Assembly: GCA_036169735.1 (NCBI GenBank) | Contig: JAVHNX010000051.1 | Location: 8,569 to 72,568, forward strand | Direction of reading: 5' to 3' | Length of the DNA stretch: 64,000 nt | Origin: Minisyncoccota bacterium | GTDB taxonomy: Bacteria > Patescibacteriota > Minisyncoccia > Phycocordibacterales > UBA9973 | Shown here: positions 10,893-58,628 of the stretch, piece by piece | How the letters are laid out: every line of letters starts with the position of its first letter | Numbering within the stretch: the stretch's first letter is position 1 | Made by a program: the position numbers and the translations under genes | The notes under the pieces: model-generated | Databases searched by the model: none | What the model was told of the DNA's origin: nothing | Seen by the model: only the letters and a program-made list of their open reading frames with translations

Positions 10893-10965
10893 GCGCTCGT
10901 AGCTCAGTCGGTAGAGCAGCTCCCTTTTAAGGAGATTGTCGTTGGTTCGATTCCAACCGAGCGCA
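10893..10965 (+). tRNA. tRNA-Lys (anticodon TTT)
   Basis: Acceptor GCGCTCG/CGAGCGC. D-arm TAGCTCAGTCGGTAGAGCA. Anticodon loop CTTTTAA. T-arm GTTGG-TTCGATT-CCAAC. Discriminator A; no encoded CCA. Confidence 0.8.
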
Positions 10966-10983
10966 CAAAACAAGAACCCAACA

Positions 10984-11007
10984 AAAGCACCCTGCGGTGC
11001 TTTTGTT
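10984..11007 (+). terminator. Hairpin terminator after tRNA-Lys
   Basis: AAAAGCACCCTGCGGTGCTTTTG. Confidence 0.5.
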
Positions 11008-11544
11008 TGTTTTGTGCGAGCCACAGGTATGTTTTGTTAGTAAACAAAACAACCGAGGCAGGGTCGTGAAAATTTTGTTTTGTCGAAAACAAAATTATTC
11101 CTGACCACAAACTAATTCGAGTTTCCGGAGATTTAAGATCCGGAAACAACCTAATTTTAATTAAAAAAAACTACAACGCAGAGAATTGTAGTTTTGTATT
11201 TTGCAGCTTATTTAAATATTTATTTTTTTGAACCGATAAATGCTTTCGCAAAGATAAACACACCATAATTCTGTCTATAATTTTCTATAATTTCCCCTCT
11301 AGGAGATGTAAACACAGCCTCAATAAAAATAGGTATTTTGATTGTTGTCTTATTGACGAATACTCTTAACAAGGTAAGTCTGATAAACGAGATTTTCTTT
11401 TTCATTTCTATAATTTTTAGGAACAGTTTAACTCAAATTTATTTACCCAAACAATATCACAAAAACATTGACGAGTCAAAGAATGTTTGGTAATGTGACG
11501 ATATATTTGTTGCTTGAAATAAACCAAACTTAATCCCTCACAAT

Positions 11545-12165
11545 ATGAAGCCTAACCTATTTTTTGATTTTGATAATACAAAATTCAACACCACCCCTGC
11601 TTTAATGTTATATATAAACCAAAGGTGGAATATAAACTCCATCGAATCTGATTACATAGGCAAAAACGATGATTTAGAATTAGTCGTGGGAAAATACAGA
11701 ACCGATATTGAAATTAATCGTGATGAAGTATACGAAGATCTTGGAAGAGATTACAATAAATCTATTCTACGACAAAAAGATGTTCCCTCTATAAAAAATA
11801 TGCGTAGGGTTATAAAGTTACTTTCAAAAAAATACACACTATGGACTGTAACAGCTCGACAAAAAGAAGGTATGCACGTCATTAAATACCTACTTGATAA
11901 ACACATTCCAGGATGTATCAGTGGTATCCACTGTGTATGGGAACGTAAAGCTAGTGGCATTTCCATAGAAACATCAAAAAAGGATTTTATTGAAAGCATT
12001 TCTGGAGAAAAAGTTGCATTCATTGATGATTCTCCAAAAGAGATATTAAAAATGCAATCAATTATTCCCTCTTACCTTTTTGACCCAAGTAAGTTACATG
12101 AAAATTTAACAGGAATAAATAACCGCATTTACAGTTGGAATGAAATCGGCAAAAAATTTCTTTAG
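11545..12165 (+). CDS. HAD-superfamily hydrolase, possibly 5'(3')-deoxyribonucleotidase-like
   Basis: HAD motif I FDFDNT (DxDxT), motif II WTVTAR and motif IV FIDDS. The product assignment is inferred. Confidence 0.5.
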   Translation: MKPNLFFDFDNTKFNTTPALMLYINQRWNINSIESDYIGKNDDLELVVGKYRTDIEINRDEVYEDLGRDYNKSILRQKDVPSIKNMRRVIKLLSKKYTLWTVTARQKEGMHVIKYLLDKHIPGCISGIHCVWERKASGISIETSKKDFIESISGEKVAFIDDSPKEILKMQSIIPSYLFDPSKLHENLTGINNRIYSWNEIGKKFL

Positions 12166-12175
12166 TTAAAAGCAA

Positions 12176-12207
12176 AACAGTATTACGTAAAAATAATACT
12201 GTTTTTT
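12176..12207. terminator. Bidirectional hairpin terminator
   Basis: AAACAGTATTACGTAAAAATAATACTGTTTTTTT. Confidence 0.6.
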
Positions 12208-12222
12208 TATTTCTATAAAAAA

Positions 12223-12681
12223 TTATCTCATCTGTTCCCCAACAGCTTCATCCTCTACATCTTTGTCTGCATCTGCCTTAGTAAGATGAATACGTCCATC
12301 AATATGATTTGGTGGAGCGTAAACTGTATAAATCTTTAGTGAACTCGTACCAGTATTTATAAAATTATGTTTTATACCAGGCGTAACAACCACAACATCA
12401 CCCGCAGCGATAGGACTTTCTTTTCCATCCAAGACTGCTTTACCGACACCACTCAAGAAGAACAGAGTCTGTTCAGTAAACTTATGTGTCTCTTCTCCAA
12501 CTTCCACACCAGGAGGAATATCCATCATAACGAGCTGACTTCTTGTACCAGTAAAAAGAACTTTTCTAAAATAAGTATTTGTTTCTGTTTCTTTAACGAT
12601 ATTTGTTATATATGGCATATGAGCTTTGCTATTTATTAAAAATAATTCATTACTCTGTTTATTTTGATAATAACGAAACAT
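12223..12681 (-). CDS. Cupin-domain protein with N-terminal membrane anchor
   Basis: Cupin-like core G(X)5HxH-like segment GEETHKF...GDVVVVTPGIKHNFINTG. Confidence 0.5.
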   Translation of the reverse strand: MFRYYQNKQSNELFLINSKAHMPYITNIVKETETNTYFRKVLFTGTRSQLVMMDIPPGVEVGEETHKFTEQTLFFLSGVGKAVLDGKESPIAAGDVVVVTPGIKHNFINTGTSSLKIYTVYAPPNHIDGRIHLTKADADKDVEDEAVGEQMR

Positions 12682-25998: not shown

Positions 25999-26134
25999 TA
26001 TAACAGCAAACGAGGAGCATAAACAAGTTCACTTGTTTAATGTCCGAGAGCAGCTGTTATATGGTAATCCATATAACAGCAAACGAGGAGCGTAGACAAG
26101 CTTGCTTGTATAACGTCCGAGTGCTGCTGTTATA
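25999..26134. repeat. Two tandem 63-bp imperfect palindromic units (period 73 bp) in the tyrS/PBP divergent intergenic region
   Basis: Unit 1 (25999-26061) and unit 2 (26072-26134) share the outer arms TATAACAGC...GCTGTTATA. The inner hairpin differs by compensatory changes (ACAAGTtcACTTGT versus ACAAGCttGCTTGT). Confidence 0.6.
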
Positions 26135-26150
26135 TAGTATTCTATATAAC

Positions 26151-28690
26151 ATGTTTTCTGATATGATAAAGAGGATGAATAAAAAACTAAAGAATAAACA
26201 ATTTTTGAAAAACTTAGTACTGTTTTGTACTGGGGGTCTTATTATTTTATTAGGTGCATTAATAATTTTAGTTTCTAGTATAAAAATACCTGACTTTCGT
26301 TCTTTTGAAGACAGAAAAGTTGCAAACTCTACCAAAATATACGATCGTACAGGTGAAATTCTTCTTTATAATATTCACCAAGACGTAAAAAGAACCAACA
26401 TTACTTTTTCAGAAATGGGTTCGAATATAAAAAATGCAACAGTCGCAGTGGAAGATTCGGATTTTTATAATCATAGTGGAATACGAGTAACCTCTATTGT
26501 TCGAGCTATTTATTCTAATTTATTTCATGTTGGGATAGGTGGGGGTGGGTCAACCATTACACAACAGTTGGTTAAAAATACACTTCTAACACGAAATAAA
26601 ACTTACATCAGAAAAATAAAGGAATGGGTATTGGCAATCAAGATTGACCGATCAATGCCAAAAGAAAAAATCTTGGAATATTATTTGAACGAAGTTCCTT
26701 ATGGTGGAGCTGTCTATGGTATACAAGAAGCAGCAAAAACATATTTTGGGAAAAATGCGAGTGATCTAACTTTGGCCGAAGCTGCATATTTGGCAGCAAT
26801 ACCTCAGTCCCCCACAACCCTATCTCCTTATGGAAAAAATAAAGATAAACTTGAAGAAAGAAAAAATTTCGTACTTTCTAGAATGAAAGATGTAAACTTC
26901 ATTACGGAAGATATCTATAATAAAGCAAAAAATGAAGTTGTAACTTTTCTTCCTCAAACAACTGGAGGTATCAAAGCTCCCCATTTTGTTTTTTTTATTA
27001 AAGATTATTTAGAAAATAAATATGGTGTGGATATGGTGGAACAAGGTGGATTGAAAGTAACTACAACTCTTAATTACGACCTACAACAAAAAGGAGAACA
27101 GATTGTAAAAGAAGGAGCACTCCAGAATGAAAAAGATTGGAACGGTAGTAACGCAGGACTTGTAGCAATTGACCCAAAAACCGGACAAATATTGACAATG
27201 GTTGGTTCCCGAGATTATTTTGATAAAAAAATTGATGGTAACTACAATATTGCGACAGCGACAAGACAACCTGGCTCTTCTTTTAAGCCTTTTATTTATG
27301 CTACAGCTTTTAACGAAGGTTTTACTCCAGATACAGTACTCTTTGATCTACCAACTGAATTTCAAACAACCTGTAATGCTTATGGTAAAGCGTTACCAGG
27401 ACATAATCAAAGTGACTGTTATATGCCCGATGACTATGATGGGAAATTCCGTGGACCTATGAGCTTACGTAATGCACTAGCTCAATCAGTAAACATCCCT
27501 GCGGTAAAACTTTTTTATTTAGTTGGACTTAAAGATGCACTGAAAACTGCAGAAGATATGGGAATTAGTACCCTGACTGATTCAAGTCGATATGGACTTA
27601 CGTTGGTTATCGGAGAGGAGAAGTAAAACTTCTTGATATTACTTCTGCTTATGGTGTTTTTGCCAATAACGGTATTAGAAACCCAGCTACTGGAATATTA
27701 AAAATAGAAGATGCTAGTGGTAAAATCTTAGAAGAATTTACACCAAGCCCTCGAGAGATTTTACCAAAAAATACAGCATTAACTATTTCAAATGTTCTTT
27801 CTGACAATACTGCACGTATTCCAACATTCGGGGCAAATTCTGTTCTTCAAATTCCTGGTAAAGACGTAGCAGTCAAAACAGGAACAACCAACAGTAACAA
27901 AGACGCTTGGACCGTCGGATACTCTCCTGTAATAGCTGTTGGTGTTTGGGCTGGTAATAATGATAACAAGCCAATGAAAAAAGGAGGCTCGGCTGTCGCG
28001 GGACCTATTTGGAATAAATTTATTATTGAAGCAATGAATATATTACCAGATGAAAAATTTGATAAACCGAATTTGGAAGTTGATATTGAAAAAGTAAAAC
28101 CAGTAATTCGTGGAATCTGGCAAGGAAACGAAAATTTCTTTATTGATAAAATTTCTGGAAAACTAGCCACAGTTAATACACCAAAAGAAACACTGAAAGA
28201 AAAAGTAGTAACCAATGTACACACAATCCTTTATTGGGTAAACAAAAATGATATTATGGGACCTTCCCCAACTAACCCTGAGAATGATTCTCAGTTTAGT
28301 CATTGGGAAATTCCAATTCAAAATTGGTGGGCAAACAATAGTTACAAATATGCAAAAACAACTTTAGCAGAGAAACCAAATGCACAAGACGATGCTCATA
28401 CTGATGCCAATAAACCTGTTGTTGGAATTGTTCAACCGAATACCACCACCGTTTATCCTAGTAATCAAAAAATACAATTAACACTCTCAAATTCTGGAAC
28501 ATACCCTCTTCAAAAAATAGATGTATTTATAAATGATGTTTATTTAGGAACTTCAAAATATCCTTTTAACTTTTCATTCACACCTTCAGATTTAGAAAAT
28601 CTAAAAGATATAAACGAAATAAAAATTATTTCATATGACACTGCATACAATAGTAGTGAGACCACTTCTATTTTTGGTGTGAGTCAATAA
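26151..28690 (+). CDS. Class A penicillin-binding protein (transglycosylase plus transpeptidase) with an apparent -1 frameshift near 27617
   Basis: GT51 motif EDSDFYNHSGI. Transpeptidase SxxK motif RQPGSSFKP. The frame ends at LVIGEEK* (27626) and the PBP sequence resumes in frame +2 (GEVKLLDITSAYGVFANNG...KTGTTN...). A single G inserted in GGAGAGGAGAAG restores GGGEVKLLD. Confidence 0.7.
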
Positions 28691-34163: not shown

Positions 34164-35549
34164 CTATTTGAGGTTTAATTTCCAAAGATAAGAGTTATTT
34201 TTATTCACAAAAAATAGATAATTTTCTCCATCATCCAATGCTAGTTTTATTCCATCCATATCCTCCCCTCCTATGGTTGAAGCAGGATCGAGAATCAATG
34301 ATGCATTGTTATTGGTAACATTTATTTTCCATATTTGATCTGAGAAAGAAACTTGTCCTTGATACCAAACATCTGGGTATGCCAATTGATCAACAAATTT
34401 CGGCACTGAACAATAAAGCGAATCACTATTTTTACCCCAAACGCATTTTTCTGGAAGAGTCTTTAATCCAAGAGGATTTGAACTTCTTGAATCTAAACTA
34501 TAAATACTAAGTGCTAGATTGTTGTTGCTATAAAGAACAAGTTTACCATTTGGACTAGTTAGAGTAGTAAGTCCGTTTATATTTCCTAGTATTTTATTAA
34601 AATCTTTCTTATTTGGATCGACTGCATACATATAACCTGGAACAGTAGCTGATGGTTTTGTTGTTAAAGTAATCATTTTTGTATTAGGCCATTGAGATAA
34701 CCATTCTGTGAAAGGAGAATTAAACACTTGAGATTTTTTATCACCAAGTGAACCAGAAGTTATACCTACAGTGCCATCTCCGATATTAAAAAAATAAAAT
34801 AGTTTTAAAGTGTCAGCTGACATACTCAAATCTGAAATATTTTCTGGAAAGAAAGATCCTTTAATTTGATTTTCCCCTGTTGTATCTGCTCCCAATACTT
34901 CTTTTGGTAAACTACCAGTGAAAGTCTCGATAGTTCTGTCATCTGTTTTTAAATATCGCATGATTACAGACTCACCTTTGTTTCCAAAATGAGCTTCATA
35001 TATAATTGGAATTATTGTTGTGGTAAATTTACGCTCTTCTATTTTATCTGCGAAAGTTTGGTAGATATTTCCTGTTGCACGTTCTACATATCTTACTGCT
35101 GGCACAAATTCAGTTGGTGGGGATGTTGGTTTAACTGGAGTTTTAGTTTTTGTAGTAGTTTTTTTTGTTGTACTGGTTGTTGTTGTGACAACTGGTACTG
35201 TTATATCGACTGGTGCTACGACAGGTACTACTACTGGTAATTCTTTGAATCTCTCTTTCATAAATATTCCAAATCCTGCAATAGGCATGCTTGATACTTT
35301 GGTCAACTTAAGTTTAGGTGCTTCTACTACAGGTGCGGGCTGAAATCCTGAAACATCAGCTGGTGCAGTAGGTTCGACTGGTGCTGGTGTGCTTTTAAAG
35401 AAAGGAAAAAATTTGGAGACAAAGTTTGATCCAGGTGAGCCAGCTGTTGTTGCTATTTGATTAGTATTATAAAAATAGAAAAAACCTAAACCAACAGCCA
35501 ATATGGCTATTAGAATAATTATTAAAAGTGTAAAGTTTCTTTTTTGCAT
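34164..35549 (-). CDS. Membrane-anchored hypothetical protein with Pro/Thr-rich linker (last gene of the T4SS-like operon)
   Basis: N-terminal TM (LLIIILIAILAVGLGFFYF), PT-rich linker (TTTSTTKKTTTKTKTPVKPTSPP), then a large extracytoplasmic domain. Confidence 0.5.
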   Translation of the reverse strand: MQKRNFTLLIIILIAILAVGLGFFYFYNTNQIATTAGSPGSNFVSKFFPFFKSTPAPVEPTAPADVSGFQPAPVVEAPKLKLTKVSSMPIAGFGIFMKERFKELPVVVPVVAPVDITVPVVTTTTSTTKKTTTKTKTPVKPTSPPTEFVPAVRYVERATGNIYQTFADKIEERKFTTTIIPIIYEAHFGNKGESVIMRYLKTDDRTIETFTGSLPKEVLGADTTGENQIKGSFFPENISDLSMSADTLKLFYFFNIGDGTVGITSGSLGDKKSQVFNSPFTEWLSQWPNTKMITLTTKPSATVPGYMYAVDPNKKDFNKILGNINGLTTLTSPNGKLVLYSNNNLALSIYSLDSRSSNPLGLKTLPEKCVWGKNSDSLYCSVPKFVDQLAYPDVWYQGQVSFSDQIWKINVTNNNASLILDPASTIGGEDMDGIKLALDDGENYLFFVNKNNSYLWKLNLK

Positions 35550-35566
35550 ATTATAATTATTTTTTT

Positions 35567-36700
35567 TTATTTTCCATCAAAAGACCAGTGCCAAGGCTCT
35601 TTTGAAAAATTAATAAGACCATAACTCCCTGCGTTAGCTTTTAACCAAATAAAGCATTTGTTGTCTTGTGTCTGGATTAAAACTCCTTCACATGTGAAAT
35701 CAAAAGCTAGACCACTTTCATGTCTTGATGTGCCTGGTACAGCAGTCGGAGGGTGGCATGTTGCTTTTGCATCATAAATACTCTGACTACCTCCACAATT
35801 TTGTGCCCTAAGATTTTCTTGAGATTGTTTTGATCTAAAGGAACCACCAGCCAGTTTGATTTGTATGCTTTGTGACCATGCTGAGTTAATCAAACTTTTT
35901 GCACCATTTGAAATTCTTTTACAGACCAAAAAATCTCCACCGGTAGTAGTTATTTTTTCAAATCCTTCTGTACATAAAGCATAAGGACCGCTCGGTGGTA
36001 TATTGCTAGTAGGGCCCACTGCCATAGCCGGTGTTTCCTCTTCTTGGATCGTTGCCTGCGGAATACCACTCAGACTCACATCCAAGAGTTGCGGGTTGAT
36101 TGTGAAAAGTAATGCATAAGCACCCAATGCGATTATAAGACCAAATATGGCATTAGTGATTCTCTCCTTCCCTTCTTCTTTGTGTCCTGAAATTTCACTA
36201 GTCATGTATTCGATACCACCGATGACTATCATTATCATTGCCAACACAGCACATATACCAATAAATAATCTAATTAATATATTTAAGTAGTCCCCAAAAG
36301 AATTAGCTTTTGCAGAGTCAAAAGTTGTTTGTAAGCCTCCTGATCCATTAGGTAGTGGAGCAAGTGGTGTATATGTTGTGTCTGTATTAACAGATCCACT
36401 GGCACCAGGTATTGGCACCGGTTTGTAAACATTTAAGGCAGTGGTACAACTATCAAAGGTATCATATGGACCTTTCCATACAATACCTGGATATCCGCCC
36501 TCAAGTGGCAAAAACCAATATTTTTGTACTGGCATTATAGTATTTGTATTTTTATCTATTGGATAACTTTTGCAAACTAACGTAGATTCAGCAACTGGTG
36601 GTTCAGTGACTTGGGCTTTTGAAAAAGAAAAAAAAGAAAAAACACCTAAAAATAAAATTATGATAACTAATATTTTATTTTTTAAATTTAACTTTTTCAT
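35567..36700 (-). CDS. Secreted protein with VirB2/TrbC-like pilin hairpin fused to a C-terminal M15 (VanY-like) peptidase domain
   Basis: Signal peptide. Central two-TM hairpin with charged loop (NILIRLFIGICAVLAMIMIVIGGIEYMTSEISGHKEEGKERITNAIFGLIIALGAYALLF), typical of T4SS pilins. C-terminal SRHESGLAFDF and EPWHW match the M15 zinc-ligand motifs SxHxxGxAxD and ExWH. Confidence 0.5.
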   Translation of the reverse strand: MKKLNLKNKILVIIILFLGVFSFFSFSKAQVTEPPVAESTLVCKSYPIDKNTNTIMPVQKYWFLPLEGGYPGIVWKGPYDTFDSCTTALNVYKPVPIPGASGSVNTDTTYTPLAPLPNGSGGLQTTFDSAKANSFGDYLNILIRLFIGICAVLAMIMIVIGGIEYMTSEISGHKEEGKERITNAIFGLIIALGAYALLFTINPQLLDVSLSGIPQATIQEEETPAMAVGPTSNIPPSGPYALCTEGFEKITTTGGDFLVCKRISNGAKSLINSAWSQSIQIKLAGGSFRSKQSQENLRAQNCGGSQSIYDAKATCHPPTAVPGTSRHESGLAFDFTCEGVLIQTQDNKCFIWLKANAGSYGLINFSKEPWHWSFDGK

Positions 36701-36703: not shown

Positions 36704-37690
36704 TTAAAAATTTATAATGAGTTCTTTTTCCTTACTTTGGAAAAGAGTTAAGGTATTATTAATCGCTACTTTGATTCTAGCTGATCCTGTTTGTCCGCTG
36801 ACTGGCTTGATTGCTAGTATGTTTTTAGGATCAGGTGTTTGTGTTGGTTGACCATTAAAAGACCAGTCAAAAGTTAGGTCTGGTGACTGAATATTTTTTG
36901 GTGAAAAGAAATATGGTTCTACAACAAGGATTTCCCCGTTTGCATTTATTTGTAAACCATTAGTTAACGCTTTTTCCCATTGTGTACCAAGGGATAGATT
37001 TTTTTTGTAAAAAATTATTTGAGGCTTTACTGTATTTAAGGTAATAGTGCCTGAAGTATTTGTAGTTCCAGAGATGTCTGATGCAGTTACTTGTACAACA
37101 TTATTTTCATCTAAATAACTGTTTTTGAAAATAAAATAACTTTTACCCCATCCAGAATAGTCTGGCTGACTAGTAGAATCCTTGGACCAAGAATAAGAAA
37201 GATTGCTAGCATTTGATTTACCTGTTGATGTTATTAGATTTGGTATTGCTACTACTTTAAAAATTCCTTGACTAGGAGCCAATGCCTTGCCTTTATAAAA
37301 AGGCGGAGTATATGAATCATAAGCCTCCCACAACATGTCCATTTCTGTAGGTGTTAGAGTTATATTCTTTATTATGCTTTGCCCGTCGATAGTGTTCATT
37401 CTTGCCTCTAGTATTAAAGAAGATCCCATATTTCCAGTATTAAAAGAAAATGATTTTTTACCAACACCTGAGATTATTTCTTTACCATTTACTGACCAAG
37501 AAATATTTGCTTTATTAAGATCTAAAACATAACTACCCAAAGTGGCGTTTATGTTTTGGTTTGGAGCTGGATATGTTGGATTGATATTCAAAGTAACATC
37601 AGTATTTTGAACCTGAGCAAAGACTGTTCCTAAAAAAGAACAAAATAAAATAATGGCAACGAATATTGATTTTTTAATCAAACTTATCAT
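36704..37690 (-). CDS. Secreted hypothetical protein (T4SS-like operon)
   Basis: Signal peptide MISLIKKSIFVAIILFCSFLGTVFAQ. No family motifs. Confidence 0.5.
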   Translation of the reverse strand: MISLIKKSIFVAIILFCSFLGTVFAQVQNTDVTLNINPTYPAPNQNINATLGSYVLDLNKANISWSVNGKEIISGVGKKSFSFNTGNMGSSLILEARMNTIDGQSIIKNITLTPTEMDMLWEAYDSYTPPFYKGKALAPSQGIFKVVAIPNLITSTGKSNASNLSYSWSKDSTSQPDYSGWGKSYFIFKNSYLDENNVVQVTASDISGTTNTSGTITLNTVKPQIIFYKKNLSLGTQWEKALTNGLQINANGEILVVEPYFFSPKNIQSPDLTFDWSFNGQPTQTPDPKNILAIKPVSGQTGSARIKVAINNTLTLFQSKEKELIINF

Positions 37691-37766: not shown

Positions 37767-39608
37767 TTAATGCGGTGCTTCTGCCTCTGTTTGCAAGTCT
37801 TCTTTTGCTTTTTTGATAGATAGAATTTGGGATGGATCGGAAGTGATTATTTGGTCTTCGGTATAAGAAGCGATTATTTTAATCGCCACGTGTTTTAGTC
37901 CCGCAAAGAAGATACCCTCCCCCACTCCAGATTCTAAAAGAAGATATTTTTCTTCGTCTGTTAGGTTGAATGTTTTTTGTAGGATATCAATTGTTGTTGG
38001 AGATTGTTTTAGAAGAAGTTGAATAGATGAGTTGGAAACAATAGGAACACCATAAGGTGATTTCATAAAGTCAGCTGCGTCTTGAGTGATAGTAGAAAGT
38101 CCAAGATAGTATTTTCTGCCTCTTTTTGCAATAGAATATAAGAATGAAGCAGTATCTTCTGATTTCATCATCCACCATGCCTCATCAACGACAAGTAAAC
38201 GCTTTTTTAAATTTTTACGAATAGCATTCCAGATATAATGCATAACGATGTACATTGCAATCGGTTTTAGTTCATCTTCCATATCACGCACAGAGAAAAC
38301 CACAAATTTTTTATTTATGTCCACATTTGATGGTCTGTTCAAGAACGTTGCCCAAGAACCTCGAGTGTATTTGATAAGTCTTTGCACTACTGAGTCACTA
38401 CCTTCCATTCCTGAAAGAACCATTTCAAAATCGGAAAGAAGCGGTGGTTCGATATTTGAGAAATCTGATTCTGGGGTAATATCTTTTATTGCATAAGTCT
38501 CAGAAATAGCACGGTCAACCATAGAATCTTCTTCTGGAGTAAGACCACCGAGCATTAGACGGAAAAGACCGACAAGATTAATCGTGTTTGAACGTAATAC
38601 ATCCTCTGCTGTCTCGTCTTCACGAGGCATCGGCAAATCAAAAGGATTGATGTGGTGATCAGAAGAAAGAGAAATATTAAAATATCTTCCACCAACAGCT
38701 TCAGCCAAGAATTCATATTCTCGTTCTGGGTCGATAACAATAACATCTACATCAAACATCAATGATCTTAAAATTTCGAGCTTGATGGCATAAGATTTTC
38801 CTGAACCAGATTTTGCGAAGGTTACTGAGTTGTAATTTTCCAATGAAAATCGGTCGAAAATAACTAGACTGGAATTGTGTCGGTTGATACCATAAAGTAT
38901 TCCCTTATCTGAAGTTAAGTCGAAAGAAACGAATGGAAAAATACTAGAAAGTGGTTCCGAATTAAGCTTTTGGTGAATATTTAATAGGTCGTTCCCTATT
39001 GGGATGACACTCTTGAATCCTTCTTCTTGTTGGAATAGTGCTGGTTTAATATAAATAAGTTTTGATTCTAGAATTGATTTTATTTCATTCTCAACTTTGT
39101 AAAGTTCTAGTTCATTGTCGGCGTAAACTGTGATATACACACCTACATCAAACATCTTTTCTTGTGCTTGCATTAAATTATCTCGAAGACTTTCAAGATC
39201 TTGAAACGCAATATCCAACATCGGATCGCGTACCATTCCTTTGGATTCTCGAGTAGAAATCTGACTTTGTACTTCCGCTACTTTTTTCTGAAATTCACGG
39301 AGTGCGATTGAAGTGTCTATTGGGTGGATAAAAATAGAAACATCAAAGATCTTATCCAAGTTAATAATAGGAGAAAACCAATTGTCTGTCAGGAATCTTG
39401 GGTAAGATATGATAAAAAATGTTCGCGCGATTTTGTCTCCCAGGTTTATTGATTTTGGTTCTATTTTTAGGGCTGACGGTGCGATAACATCTTGGAGTTC
39501 GAGTGTTGCTGATTCGTATATTTCTTCAGGTAGTACGGATAAAATAGAAGCACTAGCATTGCTTCCTTGATTTTTCTTTTTTCCAAATAATGAATCAAAA
39601 ATACCCAT
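37767..39608 (-). CDS. virB4: Type IV secretion system ATPase VirB4/TraC/TrbE family
   Basis: N-terminal VirB4-type region (...LGDKIARTFFIISYPRFL...), Walker A FAKSGSGKSY, and Walker B/D-E box LLVVDEAWWMM. 613 aa. Confidence 0.8.
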   Translation of the reverse strand: MGIFDSLFGKKKNQGSNASASILSVLPEEIYESATLELQDVIAPSALKIEPKSINLGDKIARTFFIISYPRFLTDNWFSPIINLDKIFDVSIFIHPIDTSIALREFQKKVAEVQSQISTRESKGMVRDPMLDIAFQDLESLRDNLMQAQEKMFDVGVYITVYADNELELYKVENEIKSILESKLIYIKPALFQQEEGFKSVIPIGNDLLNIHQKLNSEPLSSIFPFVSFDLTSDKGILYGINRHNSSLVIFDRFSLENYNSVTFAKSGSGKSYAIKLEILRSLMFDVDVIVIDPEREYEFLAEAVGGRYFNISLSSDHHINPFDLPMPREDETAEDVLRSNTINLVGLFRLMLGGLTPEEDSMVDRAISETYAIKDITPESDFSNIEPPLLSDFEMVLSGMEGSDSVVQRLIKYTRGSWATFLNRPSNVDINKKFVVFSVRDMEDELKPIAMYIVMHYIWNAIRKNLKKRLLVVDEAWWMMKSEDTASFLYSIAKRGRKYYLGLSTITQDAADFMKSPYGVPIVSNSSIQLLLKQSPTTIDILQKTFNLTDEEKYLLLESGVGEGIFFAGLKHVAIKIIASYTEDQIITSDPSQILSIKKAKEDLQTEAEAPH

Positions 39609-39664: not shown

Positions 39665-40309
39665 CTACTTTGTTTCTAGTTCTATTTTACCTTCAATTTC
39701 TCCTGGGTTGAATACTTTGTAGAATACTTCTACTACTTCTTCTGTTCCTAGTTGAGCAGATTTTACACCACAACGAGCAAGACCTTGCTGAATAACACTC
39801 ACTCTTTGTTCGAGCTGAGACCTCTTTTCTTCAAAATCGATTTGTTCTGCGGCTCTTGCTTCTTCTTTGTTTTTTCTTGAAAAAATACCTGAAAAAAATC
39901 CCGCATCAGCTTTAAAAGCTGTCGCAGTATAAGGCACAACAACAAAAAAGCTTTTAGTCATTATACTCACAGTCTCTGTAAAATTTTTAATGAATTCAAT
40001 ATATTCTCTTGTTTGTAGTTTTAACAATGGTTCATTTTGAACTTTCATTCTGTTTTCTAAAAGTAAAAGGTAAGGCCTAATATCAAGTTTTCTTGATTGG
40101 ATTGATATTTGAACAGAAAAGTCTATGGTATTCAAGAAGTTTTGAAACTGAAGAATCGTCGCTCTTTGTTCGTCAAATGATTTCAAAGACAGGTTCGTGG
40201 AATTAGCCAGAACAATAGCTCGAAGTCCCCCGTCTTTTAGAACGATCATACCATCTCGGACTTCTTTGATGGGGACAAACTCTTGAGTTGCTTTTGCTGA
40301 TAATGCCAT
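39665..40309 (-). CDS. Hypothetical T4SS-associated protein (weak resemblance to VirB4 N-terminal domain pattern)
   Basis: Lies between the PrgI-like and VirB4 genes. FVPIKEVRDGMIVLKDGGLRAIVLANSTNLSLKS... loosely mirrors the VirB4 N-terminus. Low confidence. Confidence 0.35.
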   Translation of the reverse strand: MALSAKATQEFVPIKEVRDGMIVLKDGGLRAIVLANSTNLSLKSFDEQRATILQFQNFLNTIDFSVQISIQSRKLDIRPYLLLLENRMKVQNEPLLKLQTREYIEFIKNFTETVSIMTKSFFVVVPYTATAFKADAGFFSGIFSRKNKEEARAAEQIDFEEKRSQLEQRVSVIQQGLARCGVKSAQLGTEEVVEVFYKVFNPGEIEGKIELETK

Positions 40310-40341: not shown

Positions 40342-40791
40342 TTATTTTTCTTCTTTTTTTGTATCTAAAACATCCAGACTCCAAGCTAAATCTTTTAATT
40401 TACTCCCACCCAATCTTGGTTCAGTTATACCAGGATAATTTGTTCCTTGTTTCAACATTTGTGTTTTTGTTTCTGCGGCCATTCTTTCTTGTGCTTTAGT
40501 TTCTGTACTTTTTCTTCTTCTTTTCCAAATATAAAGTTTGTCTTGGAAAGCATATTTGAAACCGGCTTCTAGCATATATATAAAAGGTTTATTGTTTGGT
40601 CGGTAGAATGTGAGCATACCGGCAAACCCTCCTACTAAAATTATCGGGATTATACCCCAAAGAAGTCCGATTAGTTTATAAATAACAAAACACAAACCTC
40701 CCCCACCCACAAGGTAAACGAATTCCCTAAAAGTGAATGGTCCAAAGATTTTGTCCTCTATATCTAAAAATTGTGGGACTTTGAATTGCAT
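40342..40791 (-). CDS. PrgI/TcpE-family small membrane protein (VirB3-like)
   Basis: MQFKVPQFLDIEDKIFGPFTFREFVYLVGGGGL... followed by two TM helices. This is the signature start of PrgI-family conjugation proteins. Located immediately upstream of VirB4 as in Gram-positive T4SSs. Confidence 0.6.
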   Translation of the reverse strand: MQFKVPQFLDIEDKIFGPFTFREFVYLVGGGGLCFVIYKLIGLLWGIIPIILVGGFAGMLTFYRPNNKPFIYMLEAGFKYAFQDKLYIWKRRRKSTETKAQERMAAETKTQMLKQGTNYPGITEPRLGGSKLKDLAWSLDVLDTKKEEK

Positions 40792-40803: not shown

Positions 40804-41553
40804 TTATTCTGCGGCCTCTCTATAAGGGTCTACTTTGATTGTTCTTGGAGTTGTGGGTAATTGTGAAGTTGGTATTGATGGTAATGGTGCAGGAGTAGGT
40901 GTCGTAGGTAATCCTGTTTTAGAAATATTTTGCAGAGAATATTCTGTTGTTTTGCTTGGTATTTGGAAAGAACCAGATAGTTTCGATAGAATCACAGCAG
41001 GTACTACTTCTTTTTGGACCTCAGTTAGATTTGGGATTTTAGTTGGAGTGTTTGCAAAATTTGGTTTTTCTAGTTTGGCTAGGATGTCTTCTATTTTTTC
41101 AGCTGGTTTCTCAATGTTGTATCGTATTTCTTCTTTTGGTTCTACAGTTTTTATTTCAGCTGGTTTTGATATTGGCATACTTTCTATTTTTTTTGTTTCT
41201 ACTTCAGTTTCAATCACAGGCTGTTCACCGAGTGGTGTATTCATCAATTTTAGTAACTCACGAATAGCCAAAAATACTTTTTCATTTATTTCTCCAACGA
41301 TAGCTGCACCTTTTACAGGGTCTATTTTAAGTTCGCTAATGAGTTCTGTTTCAAAGTTTTTTGTTTGAGTCAGACCCATCATCACAAGGGTTGTTTCTTG
41401 TTCAAGAATACCCATTTGTTCAACAGTTAACTGGTACCTTTTTCCAATTTCAAATAGAGTTTCTTGATAGTTGGAAGAAAGGATAACCTCTTGAATAGTT
41501 TTAGGTAAAGAATCAAACTTTTCTTTTATTATTTTTTGTGTGTTGTCGTCCAT
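40804..41553 (-). CDS. Hypothetical protein with Pro/Thr-rich C-terminus (T4SS-like operon)
   Basis: 249-aa ORF. C-terminus GLPTTPTPAPLPSIPTSQLPTTP. Confidence 0.45.
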   Translation of the reverse strand: MDDNTQKIIKEKFDSLPKTIQEVILSSNYQETLFEIGKRYQLTVEQMGILEQETTLVMMGLTQTKNFETELISELKIDPVKGAAIVGEINEKVFLAIRELLKLMNTPLGEQPVIETEVETKKIESMPISKPAEIKTVEPKEEIRYNIEKPAEKIEDILAKLEKPNFANTPTKIPNLTEVQKEVVPAVILSKLSGSFQIPSKTTEYSLQNISKTGLPTTPTPAPLPSIPTSQLPTTPRTIKVDPYREAAE

Positions 41554-41587: not shown

Positions 41588-44461
41588 TTAATGTGCGTGT
41601 CCTCCTCCACCTCCCGCTGGTGCTGCGTGTGTATCTGCAGTGTGTGTGGCAGCATGTGAATCATTTACTTTTACATCTACTTCCACATGTTTTGTAAGAT
41701 CTTCTACTTTATGTTTATCTTCTTTACTCATCTTCTTCAGTGCATCTAGAAGAGATTTATCTTTACTAATTCCTTTTCGTACAGCTGCTACAACTTCAGG
41801 ATTTGTTTTGTGAATTTCACTGAGTGAATAACCTCCGATTTCCACATGAGAAACAGCTTTCTTTAGAGCACTCAAGAATCCTCCACCCACAACTGCACCA
41901 ACGATTAATGGAGCTGCCATTCCTCCTGATCCGACTATTGCTGCACCAGCTAATGTCTTATTGGTTTTTGTATCCATTTTCTTCATACTGTCATTCCAAT
42001 CAGCCCAAAAGCCTTTTATTGCAGATTTATCATGATCCTTTTTTGCTTGATCTTCCAAACTAACGGCATACGATTCTCTTCGTTCTGCATTTATTTTCTT
42101 AGAATCTTTTTCTTCCACTGCCCCCTTAATGTCTTTGGCTTTTGCTCCTTCTTCATTTCCTTCTGTTAGACCATAACTACCAAGGTCTTTCCCTTCTTCA
42201 TGATAATCTTTTTTAAATTTCTTTTTGAACCCTTCTTCATCAAATGACACAAGAGGTGGAGGAGGTGGAGTTCCTGCTTCATATTCTTCTTTAAACTTCT
42301 TTTCATCAAAAGCCTGTTTAACTTCAAAAGGCTTTGTTGGTTTAGCTGCTTCGGCTGCTTTTGCTGCAGTCATTTGTTTAGTATATTCATTTTTCCATTT
42401 CTCATTGTCTCCTGCGAGTGCTGCAGTTGCTGTAGTCTTGGCATTTTCTACTGCTTGTTTTTCATCACCTGTATAAGCAGCTTTTTGGTCACTAGCTTTT
42501 TTATCTTGTTTTTGTGCAGCAGCTCCGGAGATTTCATAAGTTGCCATTGTCTTTTGCGCTTCTTCTTTTTCGTGTTCAAGCTGAGCCTTCATACCACCCT
42601 TGAGGTTTGCAGTACCGACTCCCATTGTGCCAGTTCCCTTATCAAGATTTAAACCAGTTGCTCCACCGAATTGTTTTCCTATATCAGTCTGTCGGAAATC
42701 AAAACTCTTACTTGCTGTCTTGTTTGCTGCAGCTAGTTTCTTTTGTGCGTCGGCTTGTGCTTTTTTCTGACCAGCAATATCGTCTTCTTTTATTCCTGCT
42801 CGGGCAAATGCTGCTTTGTCTCCAGATGCCATTGATTTTAGATTGTCGTCATTGGCAACTCCTAAAGCTTTCTTACCTACAGTGTTACGCATAGCCATCG
42901 CTGCTCCTCCTGTCGCCACACCTAATGCAAGTCCTGTAACAGCTGATCCTGCTTTAGTTATCGCCTCTCCAATATCACCTGAGTATTCTACTGCGAGTTT
43001 CTTTGCCTTTTGTAGAAGAAGGAAAATAATTAGGAAAGGAACAACAACTCTCATCATTTTGTCTAATACACCATCATTGGTTGCAACATTATAAGCAATA
43101 AGATTAAATGACTTACCAAGTAAAAGTATTACATAAAGGAAAAAAATAAAAAGTGGTGCCATGAAAGCTTGTTTCAAAAGATCATCCCACCATTTTTTGT
43201 GTCCTACACCAGGAATATCAAACGGTAATGTGTAAGAGGCGAAGGCTATCGGTGCCATAATCATTGCGACCCAAAGCCCTGCGACTCGTCCGACAAACAA
43301 AAGAGCCACTGACATAAAAATATATATCATGTATACCATCAGTATGATTGATATCAGGATTATTATAAGTGTCATTCCAGGTTGACTTGCTTTGTCTGCT
43401 ATTACGGTTTGTGGGTCAAAAGTATTAACCAAGAGCACTGTGATGGATTTTTGCCCAGCTCCACCAGCTGGTAATATCTCTCCGTTGGCTCCTTTGGAAT
43501 CGATATGATTATAAAAAACTTTTGCCAGGATATTTGATCCATCGATTATTACTTGAGTAAAAAACATACTGAAATTTATTAGAAGAGCGACGATGACTAT
43601 CGTTGCTATCATTTTCTTTCCCCCATGCCCTCCTAACCCTAAAATAGTTTGTATTGCGACATAGAGCAAAGCAATAATAAAAAATATATTAGCAATATCT
43701 CGTACTGTCGCCCAAGCTGAACCGATAAAACTTCCAGAATAAGAAGTACTAAGAGTCGAGTAGTAAATAAAGAAATCAAGAATTGAAGCAGCGAATTTTG
43801 TTACCCAAGAAATAGGTGTCCAAATTAAATAATAAATTGCTCCAACAATACACTGCTTAAACCAAGTGAACATGCTTAAGCCACAGCCAAAACTATCGTC
43901 TATTGTTGCACCAGTACTTCCTCCGGAGTTTACTGGGTTGTTATCTACTGAAGTTGGTGTTGTTGTACTGGCTGTATGAAATGTTGTATTTAGTATTTCT
44001 AAACCACCTTTGTATTTTATTTTTAACCAATACTGTGTATCTGGTAATAGATCAACATCATTACTATTACTAAAATTCTTACCAAAAAATAAAACAACAT
44101 CTCGCATAGTACCTCCCTGGACACCTGCTTCTGCTGAAGTGATCATTTGTGTAGGGTCATTTTGAGTTCCATTTAAATACAACTCACCTAATATTGTTTT
44201 AGTATTCTCTGTATCAAGATTGTTGAAAGCCGAAAGATGAACTTTGGCCATATTTAAATTTTTTTCTATTACACCTAAAATAAAACATGGTGTTGCTGAG
44301 CCTATATCACATGCAGCTGGTGTCTGTGCTAAAGCTGTATTTACTTTTGGAACGATAGCTAAATTACCTTCATTATTTTTTTGAAAACTAGCACTGACAG
44401 GCGCTAGAAAAATAGCGACCATCACTGCTGATAAAATAATTTTTGTGAAAATATTCTTCAT
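41588..44461 (-). CDS. VirB6/TrbL-like polytopic membrane protein with large N-terminal extracytoplasmic and C-terminal K/A/E-rich domains
   Basis: Signal peptide, about 190-aa exported domain, at least 6 TM helices (e.g. IIALLYVAIQTILGL, IATIVIVALLINFSMFFTQVII, LIIILISIILMVYMIYIFMSVALLFVG), then a long hydrophilic tail. This architecture matches T4SS VirB6-type proteins. Confidence 0.5.
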   Translation of the reverse strand: MKNIFTKIILSAVMVAIFLAPVSASFQKNNEGNLAIVPKVNTALAQTPAACDIGSATPCFILGVIEKNLNMAKVHLSAFNNLDTENTKTILGELYLNGTQNDPTQMITSAEAGVQGGTMRDVVLFFGKNFSNSNDVDLLPDTQYWLKIKYKGGLEILNTTFHTASTTTPTSVDNNPVNSGGSTGATIDDSFGCGLSMFTWFKQCIVGAIYYLIWTPISWVTKFAASILDFFIYYSTLSTSYSGSFIGSAWATVRDIANIFFIIALLYVAIQTILGLGGHGGKKMIATIVIVALLINFSMFFTQVIIDGSNILAKVFYNHIDSKGANGEILPAGGAGQKSITVLLVNTFDPQTVIADKASQPGMTLIIILISIILMVYMIYIFMSVALLFVGRVAGLWVAMIMAPIAFASYTLPFDIPGVGHKKWWDDLLKQAFMAPLFIFFLYVILLLGKSFNLIAYNVATNDGVLDKMMRVVVPFLIIFLLLQKAKKLAVEYSGDIGEAITKAGSAVTGLALGVATGGAAMAMRNTVGKKALGVANDDNLKSMASGDKAAFARAGIKEDDIAGQKKAQADAQKKLAAANKTASKSFDFRQTDIGKQFGGATGLNLDKGTGTMGVGTANLKGGMKAQLEHEKEEAQKTMATYEISGAAAQKQDKKASDQKAAYTGDEKQAVENAKTTATAALAGDNEKWKNEYTKQMTAAKAAEAAKPTKPFEVKQAFDEKKFKEEYEAGTPPPPPLVSFDEEGFKKKFKKDYHEEGKDLGSYGLTEGNEEGAKAKDIKGAVEEKDSKKINAERRESYAVSLEDQAKKDHDKSAIKGFWADWNDSMKKMDTKTNKTLAGAAIVGSGGMAAPLIVGAVVGGGFLSALKKAVSHVEIGGYSLSEIHKTNPEVVAAVRKGISKDKSLLDALKKMSKEDKHKVEDLTKHVEVDVKVNDSHAATHTADTHAAPAGGGGGHAH

Positions 44462-50162: not shown

Positions 50163-51104
50163 CTATTTTTTCTTACTTTTCCTAATTAAATTCATTTCAT
50201 ACCTTTGTATTGCATCAAGCGACGTTTTCCAATTTCTACCCTCTTTTACCCCCGCAACTTTACCAGTACGGACAAGAAGTCCAAGGTATTCCGCATCATA
50301 TTTTGTTTGCGGAGCTATTTTTGATAGGGATAATAAGGTATTTTCTTTAGTAGAATTTTTTATTGCTTTTATATATAAATCCAAGGAACGTTCAACTGCT
50401 TGAGAAATAAAAAGAACTAAATCTTCTATTTGGTTTTTATCAGCTTTCTGTAAAGCTTTATAATATTTTGTCCTGTCATTTTTAAGAATCACAACAATTG
50501 GATAACCTTGTTTCATTAAAATGATATTTAAAATCAATCTGCTCACCCGTCCATTACCATCACCAAAAGGATGAATAAAAACAAAACGATGTTTAAATTC
50601 TGTTGCTAAAGTAACAATGTCCAACTTGTTTTTATTTTCCTTATACCAATCTAGCAAATCCTTCATTTTATGAGGTACTTCAAATGCAGGTGATGGAGTA
50701 TGTTTGCTCCCAGTTATACGCACATCATAAGTGCGATATGAGCCAGCTTCCACCCCATCAATATTCTGCACCACCAAACTATGCAAATTTCTTATGAGCA
50801 TTTCAGAAAGCGGAATATCTTTTTTACTATCTACTACATCATATAAATATTCAATCGCTTTCGCTTGGTTTTTTACTTCCAAATGATCCTTGAATGATTT
50901 CCCTTTGACTGTAATACCTTGTTGTAAGACAAGCATTGTCTCTCGTAGGGTAAGAGTATTCCCTTCTATTGCATTTGAATTGTAATTCATCTCAATAGAA
51001 AATTGTTCACGCAGTTTATTTACTAGGTAAGGAGGAAAAGGCCGTACTTTTTTTAGTATAACTAATTTATCTTCTATTCTTTTTAAAATAAACGTATTTC
51101 TCAT
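50163..51104 (-). CDS. Fic-family protein (class II, with intrinsic inhibitory motif)
   Basis: Fic motif HPFGDGNGRVSRL. The N-terminal SNAIEGN matches the (S/T)xxxE(G/N) inhibitory helix motif. Confidence 0.8.
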   Translation of the reverse strand: MRNTFILKRIEDKLVILKKVRPFPPYLVNKLREQFSIEMNYNSNAIEGNTLTLRETMLVLQQGITVKGKSFKDHLEVKNQAKAIEYLYDVVDSKKDIPLSEMLIRNLHSLVVQNIDGVEAGSYRTYDVRITGSKHTPSPAFEVPHKMKDLLDWYKENKNKLDIVTLATEFKHRFVFIHPFGDGNGRVSRLILNIILMKQGYPIVVILKNDRTKYYKALQKADKNQIEDLVLFISQAVERSLDLYIKAIKNSTKENTLLSLSKIAPQTKYDAEYLGLLVRTGKVAGVKEGRNWKTSLDAIQRYEMNLIRKSKKK

Positions 51105-57179: not shown

Positions 57180-58628
57180 TTAACCTTGTAATTTTGTATT
57201 AATGTTTTTTGTTTGTTGTGTTTGGGCTATACTTTTGTTTTCAACTTTTCCTGTTTTAGGGTTTACTGCATATTGATGAACCAGTGTTTGTTTTCCAATC
57301 TTTCCTGTTTGTGGGTTTAAGGACAAATTCGGGTCATCTGTGGTTATAAACAATGTAGTATTTTCTGGAAGATTATCGAGATACTTGAAGTTTTCTTTGT
57401 CTGCGTTAACACACCCGAAGGTTGCTTTGTTATCATCAGAAGTAGGAGTATTGAGTGCTTTTGTTCTTTTTGCATATTCTCCAGGGTAAGTCATGTGGAT
57501 ACCTAAATCATCACTTCCATAGATACTAAATATTTTTCCTTGGTATTCTACATAGTCACTTCTGTTTATTTCTTTACGTCCTATTTTGTATTTACCGGCT
57601 GGTGTCGTTGCGTGTGGTCCAGCTAAATCACTATCTACATCAGATCTGTTTGGCGCTTCTCCTTTTGTTTTTCCGACGAGTACAGGGAATGAACCAATTA
57701 AATTTTTGTCTTTTCCAATTACGTACATAGTTGCTGTTGGTTTATCAAGAATAAGAAAACTTGAGTCAACTATATTTTTGAAAGAGTAAAGATAAATTTC
57801 TTGAGCACTTGGTGAAAGTTTGTAATAAAATGATGCGTCAATAGTCTTTTTATCTTGTTCTAAAGCCACCTTTGCTACTTTTTCATGGCTGATTGTTGTT
57901 ACCTTTCCATTTACATTTTCTGGCAATACAGTCTTTCCTTCTTTGCCTAGAGCTGAAGGCCAAAGAACAAGTATTCCCGTGCCCAACAAAACCCCTCGTC
58001 TCATTTTTAGAGAGATGGCTTTCATTTTTTCTGAAACTTTGAATCCTGATGCAAGTTTTACTACTTGGTTGCGCAAAAATAAACCAAGGTTAGTTTTTAC
58101 TTGTTCTGGTTCGAACTTTTCTAGAGTTGATGTTTTTATTTCTTCTTGAACAGTCTTTATTTCTTCTTTTGAAAGACTTTCTACCAATTTTTCTTCTTGT
58201 TTTTGTTCGACAACTTCCTGTGTTTCAAGTATTTCTGTTGATTTTATTACTTCTGTTTCGGTAGTTATTTTTTCTGTCTCTTTTGGTATTTCCTCTTTAG
58301 TAAGTAATACTTCTTCTTTTTCAATATTAATAACTTCATCTGGGGCTACCTGCTCACCTACAGCTTCAGTCTTTATTTCTGTAGATTGTTCTATTACTTC
58401 TTGAACTGTTTCTTTTCTAGAAAGTGAATTTTCTTTTTCTTGAATTAAACCCAGAAGGTTTTGAGCTCTATTCCTTAAATATTCGGATTCTGATTTTAAG
58501 TCTTCTGTAAATAATTTTTTCCAATGGTCTATATTGGCTTTTGATGGATCAGAAAAAATCTTTTCGATTCTTTTTGTTTCAAAAGTTTCTTTTTTATTAT
58601 CTATTGTATTTTCTTTTGATTTTTCCAT
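57180..58628 (-). CDS. Hypothetical protein with possible C-terminal L,D-transpeptidase (YkuD)-like domain
   Basis: C-terminal ...GIHMTYPGE...ATFGCVNA loosely fits the His...(S/T)xGC(V/I) catalytic pattern. N-terminal K/E-rich region with one TM. Confidence 0.35.
   Translation of the reverse strand: MEKSKENTIDNKKETFETKRIEKIFSDPSKANIDHWKKLFTEDLKSESEYLRNRAQNLLGLIQEKENSLSRKETVQEVIEQSTEIKTEAVGEQVAPDEVINIEKEEVLLTKEEIPKETEKITTETEVIKSTEILETQEVVEQKQEEKLVESLSKEEIKTVQEEIKTSTLEKFEPEQVKTNLGLFLRNQVVKLASGFKVSEKMKAISLKMRRGVLLGTGILVLWPSALGKEGKTVLPENVNGKVTTISHEKVAKVALEQDKKTIDASFYYKLSPSAQEIYLYSFKNIVDSSFLILDKPTATMYVIGKDKNLIGSFPVLVGKTKGEAPNRSDVDSDLAGPHATTPAGKYKIGRKEINRSDYVEYQGKIFSIYGSDDLGIHMTYPGEYAKRTKALNTPTSDDNKATFGCVNADKENFKYLDNLPENTTLFITTDDPNLSLNPQTGKIGKQTLVHQYAVNPKTGKVENKSIAQTQQTKNINTKLQG

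Follow-up and report, generated by a model that had tools for sequence, protein, structure and literature searches.

The open reading frame (ORF) at positions 35567 to 36700 on the minus strand of a 64,000-nucleotide stretch of a Minisyncoccota bacterium genome (contig JAVHNX010000051.1, positions 8,569 to 72,568; hereafter the window) encodes a 377 amino acid protein which joins a predicted VirB2-like pilin of a type IV secretion system (T4SS) to a C-terminal domain assigned to the M15B zinc peptidases. The gene occupies a fixed slot in a T4SS locus, the key residues of both parts are conserved among homologues, and the enzyme is replaced by other modules in close relatives. Both domains, as well as Patescibacteria T4SSs with VirB2-like pilins, are already known, and public databases list both Pfam domains on these proteins; no published description of the fusion, its dominance within the clade or the cassette exchange was found in full-text and main-text searches, which had incomplete coverage and did not extend to supplements. 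The gene and the parts of its product are:

35567..36700, minus strand: pilin-VanY fusion ORF, ATG start, 377 aa plus stop
36614..36700, minus strand: Sec-type signal peptide, residues 1-29 (MKKLNLKNK, a hydrophobic core and SKA before Q), helix 6-22 in the model, putative cleavage site
36386..36613, minus strand: N-terminal ectodomain, residues 30-105, hypervariable and with no recognisable domain
36071..36385, minus strand: conserved VirB2-like pilin core, residues 106-210, with YTPLAPLP, helix 134-167, a short K/E-rich loop, helix 171-201 and TINPQLL
35984..36070, minus strand: conserved junction (SGIPQATIQ) and, after it, a flexible Pro-rich linker, residues 211-239, pLDDT 55-67
35570..35983, minus strand: M15B (VanY/LdcB-type) zinc peptidase domain, residues 240-377, six conserved cysteines, alpha/beta, pLDDT 95-98

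The gene is part of a tight minus-strand operon, lying 3 nt from the stop codon of the gene upstream and leaving 17 nt between its own stop and the next start. A first-pass annotation of the DNA letters had described a signal peptide, a hairpin of two transmembrane helices with a charged loop and an M15 domain in this ORF, and had proposed that Pfam searches with the two halves, a structure prediction and a survey of homologous loci should follow. The N-terminus, MKKLNLKNKILVIIILFLGVFSFFSFSKA, does have the n/h/c arrangement of a Sec signal peptide when judged by eye, and a simple hydropathy scan detects three hydrophobic segments in the protein, at residues 9-27, 141-159 and 181-199. Over the full length, pLDDT averages 78 in the AlphaFold2 model, for which 50 homologues were used; confidence is low in the N-terminal region 24-105 (pLDDT 43-55) and in the Pro-rich linker (residues ~205-239), reaches 80-89 in the two long helices of the hairpin (134-167 and 171-201) and exceeds 95 in the M15 fold. 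The protein thus has the layout of VirB2/TrbC pilins, namely a signal peptide (presumably cleaved), two hydrophobic helices and a short polar loop. It departs from the classical small pilin, with a mature mass of ~7-12 kDa and no extra domains, in being 377 residues long and in carrying an N-ectodomain of 76 and an enzyme domain of 138 residues.

The hairpin string LAMIMIVIGGIEYMTSEISGHKEEGKERITNAIFGLIIALGAYALLF falls within residues 106-210, and profile searches bear out its description as pilin-like. Residues 139-194 match the Pfam family PF18895 (T4SS_pilin) with E=3e-8 and 34 bits, above the cut-off of 26.6. The score against PF04956 (TrbC/VirB2), 19.5 bits, lies below the 27.9 bits that define membership of that family; among 50 relatives, PF04956 reaches 16 at E<0.01 (best E=1.1e-6), which points to distant homology and not to membership. 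NF045849, the NCBIfam model of the Mbov_0395 family of pilin-like conjugal transfer proteins from Mycoplasma integrative and conjugative elements (ICEs), matches at E=1.1e-6, also below its cut-off. On this evidence the fusion protein is filed under the Patescibacteria T4SS_pilin family and termed VirB2-like, not a member of PF04956. In an alignment of 50 sequences, a large part of the hairpin shows little or no variation. Stand-alone proteins of 111-187 aa, some of them named 'pilin' by NCBI, consist of a signal peptide and a pilin core, are 59-71% identical, carry the motif YxLLAPLP and stop near the junction point of the fusion protein; since other genomes have such stand-alone pilins where the window has the fusion, the product of this slot can be taken to be the pilin. 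A hidden Markov model (HMM) of the hairpin run against all ORFs of at least 50 aa recovered 35567-36700 as the only pilin-like ORF in the window, and no pilin paralogue was found there.

A two-helix hairpin is by its fold indistinguishable from many membrane hairpins. Foldseek searches of the PDB with the hairpin returned NuoK, ATP-synthase c subunits and similar generic membrane hairpins but no pilins, and the hairpin profile matched no PDB sequence even at E<=10. Because fold comparison gave no pilin match, the assignment is based on sequence profiles and gene context. These structural results are what would be expected if the hairpin merely anchored a housekeeping D,D- or L,D-carboxypeptidase, its location in a T4SS locus being without functional meaning. 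This explanation seems highly improbable given that three pilin profiles match (PF18895 above its cut-off, PF04956 and NF045849 below theirs), and the gene context described below argues further against it.

The C-terminal half carries the two zinc-ligand motifs which had led the first-pass annotation to propose an M15 peptidase:

35699..35728, minus strand: SRHESGLAFD, the SxHxxGxAxD motif, which provides zinc ligands H327 and D334; unchanged in all 50 homologues
35585..35599, minus strand: EPWHW, the ExxH motif, catalytic E368 and zinc ligand H371, invariant in the 50-sequence alignment

R298 and six cysteines are likewise invariant in this alignment, and the cysteines fit an extracytoplasmic enzyme. 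Residues 260-376 match PF02557 (VanY) with E=2e-12 and 47.5 bits, well beyond the cut-off of 25, so that each half of the protein exceeds a curated Pfam cut-off. Against the PDB, the family profile aligns both motifs with D-alanyl-D-alanine carboxypeptidase chains (6a6a, 5zhf and 5hnm; E=1.4e-13), and it also matches LdcB/YodJ (4ox3 and 4ox5; E=7e-10), VanXY and, weakly, phage L-alanyl-D-glutamate peptidases. The sole significant Foldseek match of the modelled domain in the PDB is VanXYc (4oak; E=9.8e-5, probability 1.00). The domain is accordingly modelled as an M15B (Hedgehog/DD-peptidase-type) fold with a complete set of catalytic residues. Its scores against the NCBIfam models for LdcB (26 versus 275 bits) and VanY-B/G (20 versus 400 bits) are far below the cut-offs, which makes it an M15B-type peptidase that is an orthologue of neither. 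Since all catalytic residues of VanY/LdcB-type enzymes are present, the domain is predicted to remove terminal D-Ala from peptidoglycan stem peptides. Enzymes of this type are carboxypeptidases which trim stem peptides and are not classical hole-making hydrolases.

Another gene of the window looks frameshifted, and the integrity of the pilin gene was checked for this reason. The gene in question, for a class A penicillin-binding protein (PBP1; 26040-28690, plus strand), is apparently split near 27615: alignment to an 846-aa orthologue places residues 1-489 in frame 3 and residues 491-845 in frame 2, leaving a 528-aa ORF and a separate 238-aa Big_7 ORF, either through an assembly error or because the gene is a pseudogene. 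It could be argued by analogy that a frameshift or a chimeric assembly joined a pilin gene to an adjoining peptidase gene, an origin that the first-pass annotation had itself named as a way in which its proposal might fail. Four contigs, assembled independently from separate sequencing runs, encode the identical 377-aa protein, and a search of 5.8 billion proteins gave 359 relatives which, wherever an organism is named, belong to Patescibacteria, Paceibacterota, Minisyncoccia or Nomurabacteria. Among the 137 homologous sequences retrieved, 134 have the hairpin, 104 the VanY-type domain and 101 both within one ORF, the latter at 37-57% identity; the three homologues with VanY only are all fragments of 209-221 aa. 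When 50 members of the family were scanned one by one, VanY was detected in 50, T4SS_pilin in 49 and TrbC/VirB2 in 16. Pilin and enzyme did not occur as adjacent separate genes in any of the genomes examined (L005 to L010). The four contigs and the 101 one-ORF homologues effectively rule out a frameshift or chimeric-assembly origin, the probability of which is negligible.

The same slot holds different proteins in related genomes. The fusion of pilin and VanY recurs in L005 and L006, while L007 has a pilin fused to a YkuD domain; in L008, L009 and L010 the pilin stands alone, at 143-151 aa, and its neighbourhood has no enzyme gene. Of the available genomes L007 is the nearest, with a VirB4 protein 99.8% identical to that of the window and backbone genes 92-98% identical at the DNA level. 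A blastn comparison of the window with L007 gives 93.4% identity from 43870 down to 36052, none from 36051 to 35555, and 93.9% identity resuming at 35554, which delimits the following element:

35555..36051, no strand assigned: exchangeable cassette of 497 nt (linker, enzyme module, stop and spacer), the sole stretch with no counterpart in L007

At this position L007 carries a 574-nt segment that codes for a YkuD L,D-transpeptidase domain. Similarity returns 5 nt upstream of the start codon of the next gene, which is conserved; the exchanged segment ends with the stop codon and spacer, and no additional, immunity-like gene is swapped along with the cassette relative to L007. The hairpin is near-identical to that of L007 across residues 126-213, and the genes flanking the pilin are 93-100% identical. 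A second divergence hot-spot is formed by codons 30-105 of the N-ectodomain, which are only 63.5% identical to the L007 orthologue in nucleotide and 44.7% in amino acid sequence. The hairpin end TINPQLLDVSLSG is common to the window protein, to L011 (on the same contig as L007) and to both pilin genes of L012, and is followed by VanY in the window, YkuD in L011, and NlpC/P60 and an unnamed module in the L012 pair. The junction TINPxLL and, a few residues later, IPxAxIxV are kept across module families before the sequences diverge. Sequence comparison thus identifies the enzyme as a cassette which has apparently been exchanged by recombination just after the hairpin and junction. A housekeeping enzyme held by a generic anchor would not be expected to give way to non-equivalent enzymes between near-identical genomes. 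The two pilin genes of L012 (9871-11619 and 13024-14871) have near-identical cores with different modules, NlpC/P60 and the unnamed one, and in L090 a single ORF (10882-12306) contains two tandem hairpins.

The extent of the exchange was surveyed in one clade. A protein search with the hairpin alone gave 17 short proteins and was unsuited as a census, and so the census was anchored on VirB4: it covers 80 loci, each from a different GTDB species representative, with VirB4 proteins 76-100% identical. A hairpin ORF is present ~1 kb downstream of virB4 in 71 of the 80 loci, and in eight of the nine loci without one the contig breaks off too soon. This conservation of the slot, together with the presence of enzyme-free pilins in it, again argues against an anchor of no relevance to the T4SS. 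The 73 slot pilins carry the following modules after the hairpin:

NlpC/P60: 12 of 73
unknown-A: 12 of 73
VanY-type: 8 of 73, all with both motifs
YkuD: 5 of 73
Peptidase_M15_4: 3 of 73
SLT_2: 2 of 73
SLT: 1 of 73
five smaller clusters with no Pfam name: 13 of 73
singletons with no Pfam name: 11 of 73
no module: 6 of 73

There are at least 13 module types, of which VanY is only one, and in 67 of the 73 slot pilins the hairpin is followed by 100 aa or more. The first-pass annotation had called a pilin-hydrolase fusion unusual, which holds in comparison with textbook T4SSs but not within its own clade, where ~90% of slot pilins bear a C-terminal module. All modules with a Pfam name act on peptidoglycan, and about half of the modules have no such name. 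Module type does not track the relatedness of VirB4, with the locus of nearest VirB4 bearing a different module in 60 of 72 comparisons. The N-ectodomain varies in length from 17 to 476 aa across species. Unknown-A (L016:9820-10842 and 11 other loci, in 12 species) ties as the commonest module and has the invariant residues C62, C70, C88, C91, E100, W102, H104, H110, D118, H161 and H163, with the motifs HxxGxAxxD and HWH. These motifs had suggested a LAS/M15-like metallopeptidase, a candidate that found no support in Pfam, PDB profile, AlphaFold with Foldseek (PDB and BFVD) or hhalign searches; hhalign of unknown-A against the VanY family aligned the linker alone. Unknown-A may represent a novel family of metallo-enzymes that act on the cell wall, and the about a dozen modules without identification may likewise be new wall-acting enzyme families.

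The surrounding cluster is of the monoderm type, confirming the T4SS setting of the ORF. In order of transcription, the pilin gene is accompanied by:

41588..44461, minus strand: polytopic membrane protein of 957 aa, proposed solely on position and transmembrane segments as a VirB6-like channel subunit
40804..41553, minus strand: conserved 249-aa protein, also in the loci of relatives
40342..40791, minus strand: PrgI/VirB3-like membrane protein of 149 aa (PF12666, E=5.6e-8)
39665..40309, minus strand: TraC-like/TrsD-like protein of 214 aa (NCBIfam NF045975 and NF041427; PF26593 on orthologues)
37767..39608, minus strand: VirB4-like T4SS ATPase of 613 aa (PF19044, E=5.7e-24; AAA_10)
36704..37690, minus strand: secreted conserved protein of 328 aa between virB4 and the pilin gene, present at every locus examined
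34164..35549, minus strand: membrane-anchored conserved protein of 461 aa with a Thr/Pro-rich stalk, directly downstream of the pilin gene, at every locus examined

The pilin fusion is transcribed between the genes for the 328-aa and 461-aa proteins. The 957-aa protein has at least six hydrophobic segments and a conserved position among relatives, with no match in Pfam or NCBIfam. The 214-aa protein matches TrsD and positions 102-233 of 894 in the Mycoplasma-ICE VirB4 model, which lie in its N-terminal region, and the N-domain of VirB4 thus seems to be a separate gene here. The 328-aa and 461-aa flanking proteins, with no relatives in Pfam, NCBIfam or the PDB, are likely candidates for T4SS or pilus components. 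Directly past the cluster lie jag, yidC, rnpA, dnaA and dnaN, which places the locus on the chromosome next to the replication origin. The order VirB4, 328-aa protein, pilin, ~460-aa protein, jag/yidC/rnpA and dnaA is conserved in L005 to L010. Pfam and NCBIfam scans of the T4SS cluster (34-50 kb) found no second wall hydrolase, and the locus yielded no maturation peptidase, TraF-like or otherwise.

It is tentatively proposed, with somewhat less than even confidence, that an exchangeable wall-editing enzyme is linked to the T4SS through the pilin core and acts on the wall of the producing cell. The gene would encode the resident VirB2-like pilin of a chromosomal, origin-proximal T4SS in an ultra-small member of the Patescibacteria (Paceibacteria/Minisyncoccia), its product being made as an exported precursor. 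Removal of the signal peptide would leave the N-ectodomain outside the cell, with helix 1 running inward, the K/E-rich loop in the cytoplasm, helix 2 running outward and the peptidase outside. Tethered flexibly by ~30 residues to the outside of the producer's membrane, the peptidase could then edit stem peptides where the machine and its pilus pass the cell's own wall, lowering cross-linking locally. Enterococcal VanY and LdcB are themselves membrane-tethered and work on the outside of the membrane of the cell that makes them, so that an M15B module beside the own wall would be in the native configuration of its family. The tethered enzyme may stand in, as part of the pilin, for the VirB1-type wall enzyme that is missing as a separate protein from these loci. 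Action in cis is supported by the sister cassettes, which hold SLT and NlpC/P60 domains, both of a type known from monoderm VirB1-like enzymes (PMC12102498). The only cultured Paceibacteria parasitise methanogenic archaea, which have no murein, and highly express proteins with T4SS-pilin domains (PMC10936435); this makes it less likely that the host wall is the target in all lineages.

Several observations weigh against this proposal. A carboxypeptidase trims peptides and opens no holes, so that replacement of VirB1 by the fusion protein is no more than plausible. The modules VanY, YkuD (which cross-links), NlpC/P60 and SLT are biochemically non-equivalent, which is odd for one housekeeping role, and about half of the modules carry no identification. 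The machine apparently works without a module, as six of the 73 slot pilins have none. Module turnover is very fast, given YkuD in the genome with the 99.8%-identical VirB4 and the 60 of 72 nearest neighbours that differ, and such turnover is, together with a hypervariable N-ectodomain, more typical of proteins which face another organism.

The latter features resemble polymorphic effector systems, in which swapped C-terminal modules follow near-identical backbones, and it is possible, if doubtful, that the protein forms an enzymatic pilus or surface display at a partner cell, where the exchangeable enzyme and variable adhesin-like domain would weaken or remodel host peptidoglycan at the site of attachment. 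Non-equivalent modules are normal for effectors, and in solved VirB2-family pili both termini are on the outer surface. The module set (amidase/endopeptidase, M15 peptidase, YkuD and lytic transglycosylase) overlaps that of wall-targeting effectors from other contact-dependent systems, such as the YkuD-like type VI secretion system (T6SS) effector Tlde1 (PMC9638812) and fused effectors of the VgrG3 type (PMC9927483), flagellinolysin provides a precedent for an enzymatic filament (PMC5595980), and Southlakia cannot grow as an epibiont unless it has the T4SS and its pilins (PMC10633639), a pilus having been proposed (PMC12857230). Against this, no immunity-like gene moves with the cassette, a tethered enzyme lies by default beside the producer's own wall, the archaeal hosts of cultured Paceibacteria have no murein to attack, and the hairpin has no structural match among solved pilins by Foldseek or PDB profile. 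Space is a further concern: the F-pilus has a rise of ~2.5 Å per subunit and a diameter of 87 Å, and by a rough estimate from this geometry a 19-kDa domain plus an N-ectodomain on each subunit would be sterically very tight. The fullest version, in which every subunit of a VirB2-like filament displays a wall-editing enzyme and an adhesin-like ectodomain, works its way through the partner's wall and is tuned to host wall chemistry by module swapping, is rather unlikely. If the protein does polymerise, it would to our knowledge be the first enzyme-bearing T4SS pilus.

VirB2-family pilins such as TrbC of RP4 undergo C-terminal processing, and the module could accordingly be cut off at the junction or linker during pilin maturation, the pilin gene doubling as the carrier of a soluble wall enzyme. 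The TINPxLL...IPxAxIxV junction recurs after the hairpin in unrelated module families and is followed by the low-confidence Pro-rich linker, and stand-alone pilins terminate close to it; conservation of the junction is equally explained by the end of the pilin fold or by a homology arm for recombination, and the locus has no detectable TraF-like or other maturation peptidase. Such a pro-protein is improbable, and release of the module at the junction would be compatible with action on either the producer's or the partner's wall.

Patescibacteria T4SSs have been described as MPF_FATA-like, with VirB2-like pilins near virB4, proximity to dnaA and no relaxase (Quinonero-Coronel et al. 2025, PMC12102498). 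The system in the window agrees with this description in its PF18895 match above cut-off, its setting by virB4 and PrgI/VirB3 near dnaA, and its signal peptide with two helices. The described pilins are small and often encoded in arrays, which in Saccharimonadia and Microgenomatia comprise 2-11 divergent VirB2-like genes (PMC12102498), whereas the gene in the window is single and its product adds an N-ectodomain and an enzyme at the C-terminus. Epibiotic growth of Southlakia requires both the T4SS and its array of pilins (Wang et al. 2023, PMC10633639). No T4SS before that of the Patescibacteria had been shown to be indispensable to its own carrier, and a recent review describes the Patescibacteria systems as unique among monoderms in possibly making pili (PMC12857230). 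Pilin-enzyme fusions are not mentioned in the main texts of PMC12102498 and PMC10633639, whose supplements were outside the search. Most Patescibacteria genomes with VirB2 lack VirB1, from which it was concluded that pilus biogenesis seems not to need a VirB1 homologue (PMC12102498); for one large clade, a wall enzyme built into the pilin is a concrete alternative to this conclusion. The design may help to explain how the Patescibacteria T4SS deals with cell walls and would surprise T4SS specialists. It also makes one part of the role of the system at the cell wall directly testable, through a soluble domain of 138 residues, defined catalytic residues and natural swap variants.

Further afield, the hairpin topology, short polar loop and sub-threshold profile similarity are shared with VirB2/TrbC/TraA pilins (PF04956); unlike these, the fusion protein scores below the family cut-off, belongs to a monoderm MPF_FATA-like system and not a diderm one, and is four to five times larger. 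It resembles the M15B enzymes VanY (D,D-carboxypeptidase) and LdcB/DacB (L,D-carboxypeptidase) in PF02557, the SxHxxGxAxD and ExxH motifs, the fold and the inferred extracellular membrane tethering, and differs from them in its six conserved cysteines and in being anchored by a pilin hairpin instead of a single N-terminal helix. VirB1-like enzymes (PrgK, TraG of pIP501, TcpG and CwlT) are likewise membrane-tethered wall-acting enzymes encoded in T4SS loci, and share SLT and NlpC/P60 domains with the sister cassettes; they are separate proteins with their own anchors which cleave glycan strands or cross-links, whereas here the enzyme is pilin-fused and of the carboxypeptidase type. Evolved VgrG/Hcp/PAAR proteins of the T6SS (such as VgrG3) and polymorphic toxins also combine a conserved N-terminal part and a junction with C-terminal enzymes, including YkuD-like ones, that are swapped between close strains; they belong to other secretion systems, whereas the cassette of the pilin fusion comes with no cognate immunity gene. 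In flagellinolysin the core of the filament subunit is conserved and the enzyme lies in the variable surface part (Eckhard et al. 2017, PMC5595980), but the filament is a different one, its enzyme is inserted and not terminal, its target is protein and not cell wall, and the pilin is a putative filament subunit. The NF045849 match to the pilin core would, if it reflects real homology, mean that pilin-like proteins occur in MPF_FATA-type systems, and this would be relevant to the published proposal of a diderm T4SS as the source from which Patescibacteria co-opted their pilin.

The window also encodes, upstream of the T4SS cluster, a Fic-domain protein, a YkuD-domain protein of 482 aa in which neither a signal peptide nor a transmembrane segment could be detected and, nearby, a LysM and M23 peptidase (50163-51104, minus strand; 57180-58628, minus strand; and 62233-63327, plus strand, respectively). 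LysM and M23 were reported as additional domains of VirB1 homologues in a 2025 survey (PMC12102498). Small extra genes of the 23S_rRNA_IVP/bAvd-like, GIY-YIG and ORF6N types are found at variable sites inside otherwise syntenic T4SS loci (L008:5482-5850, L009:5490-5852, L006:5620-5874 and L010:2073-2636).

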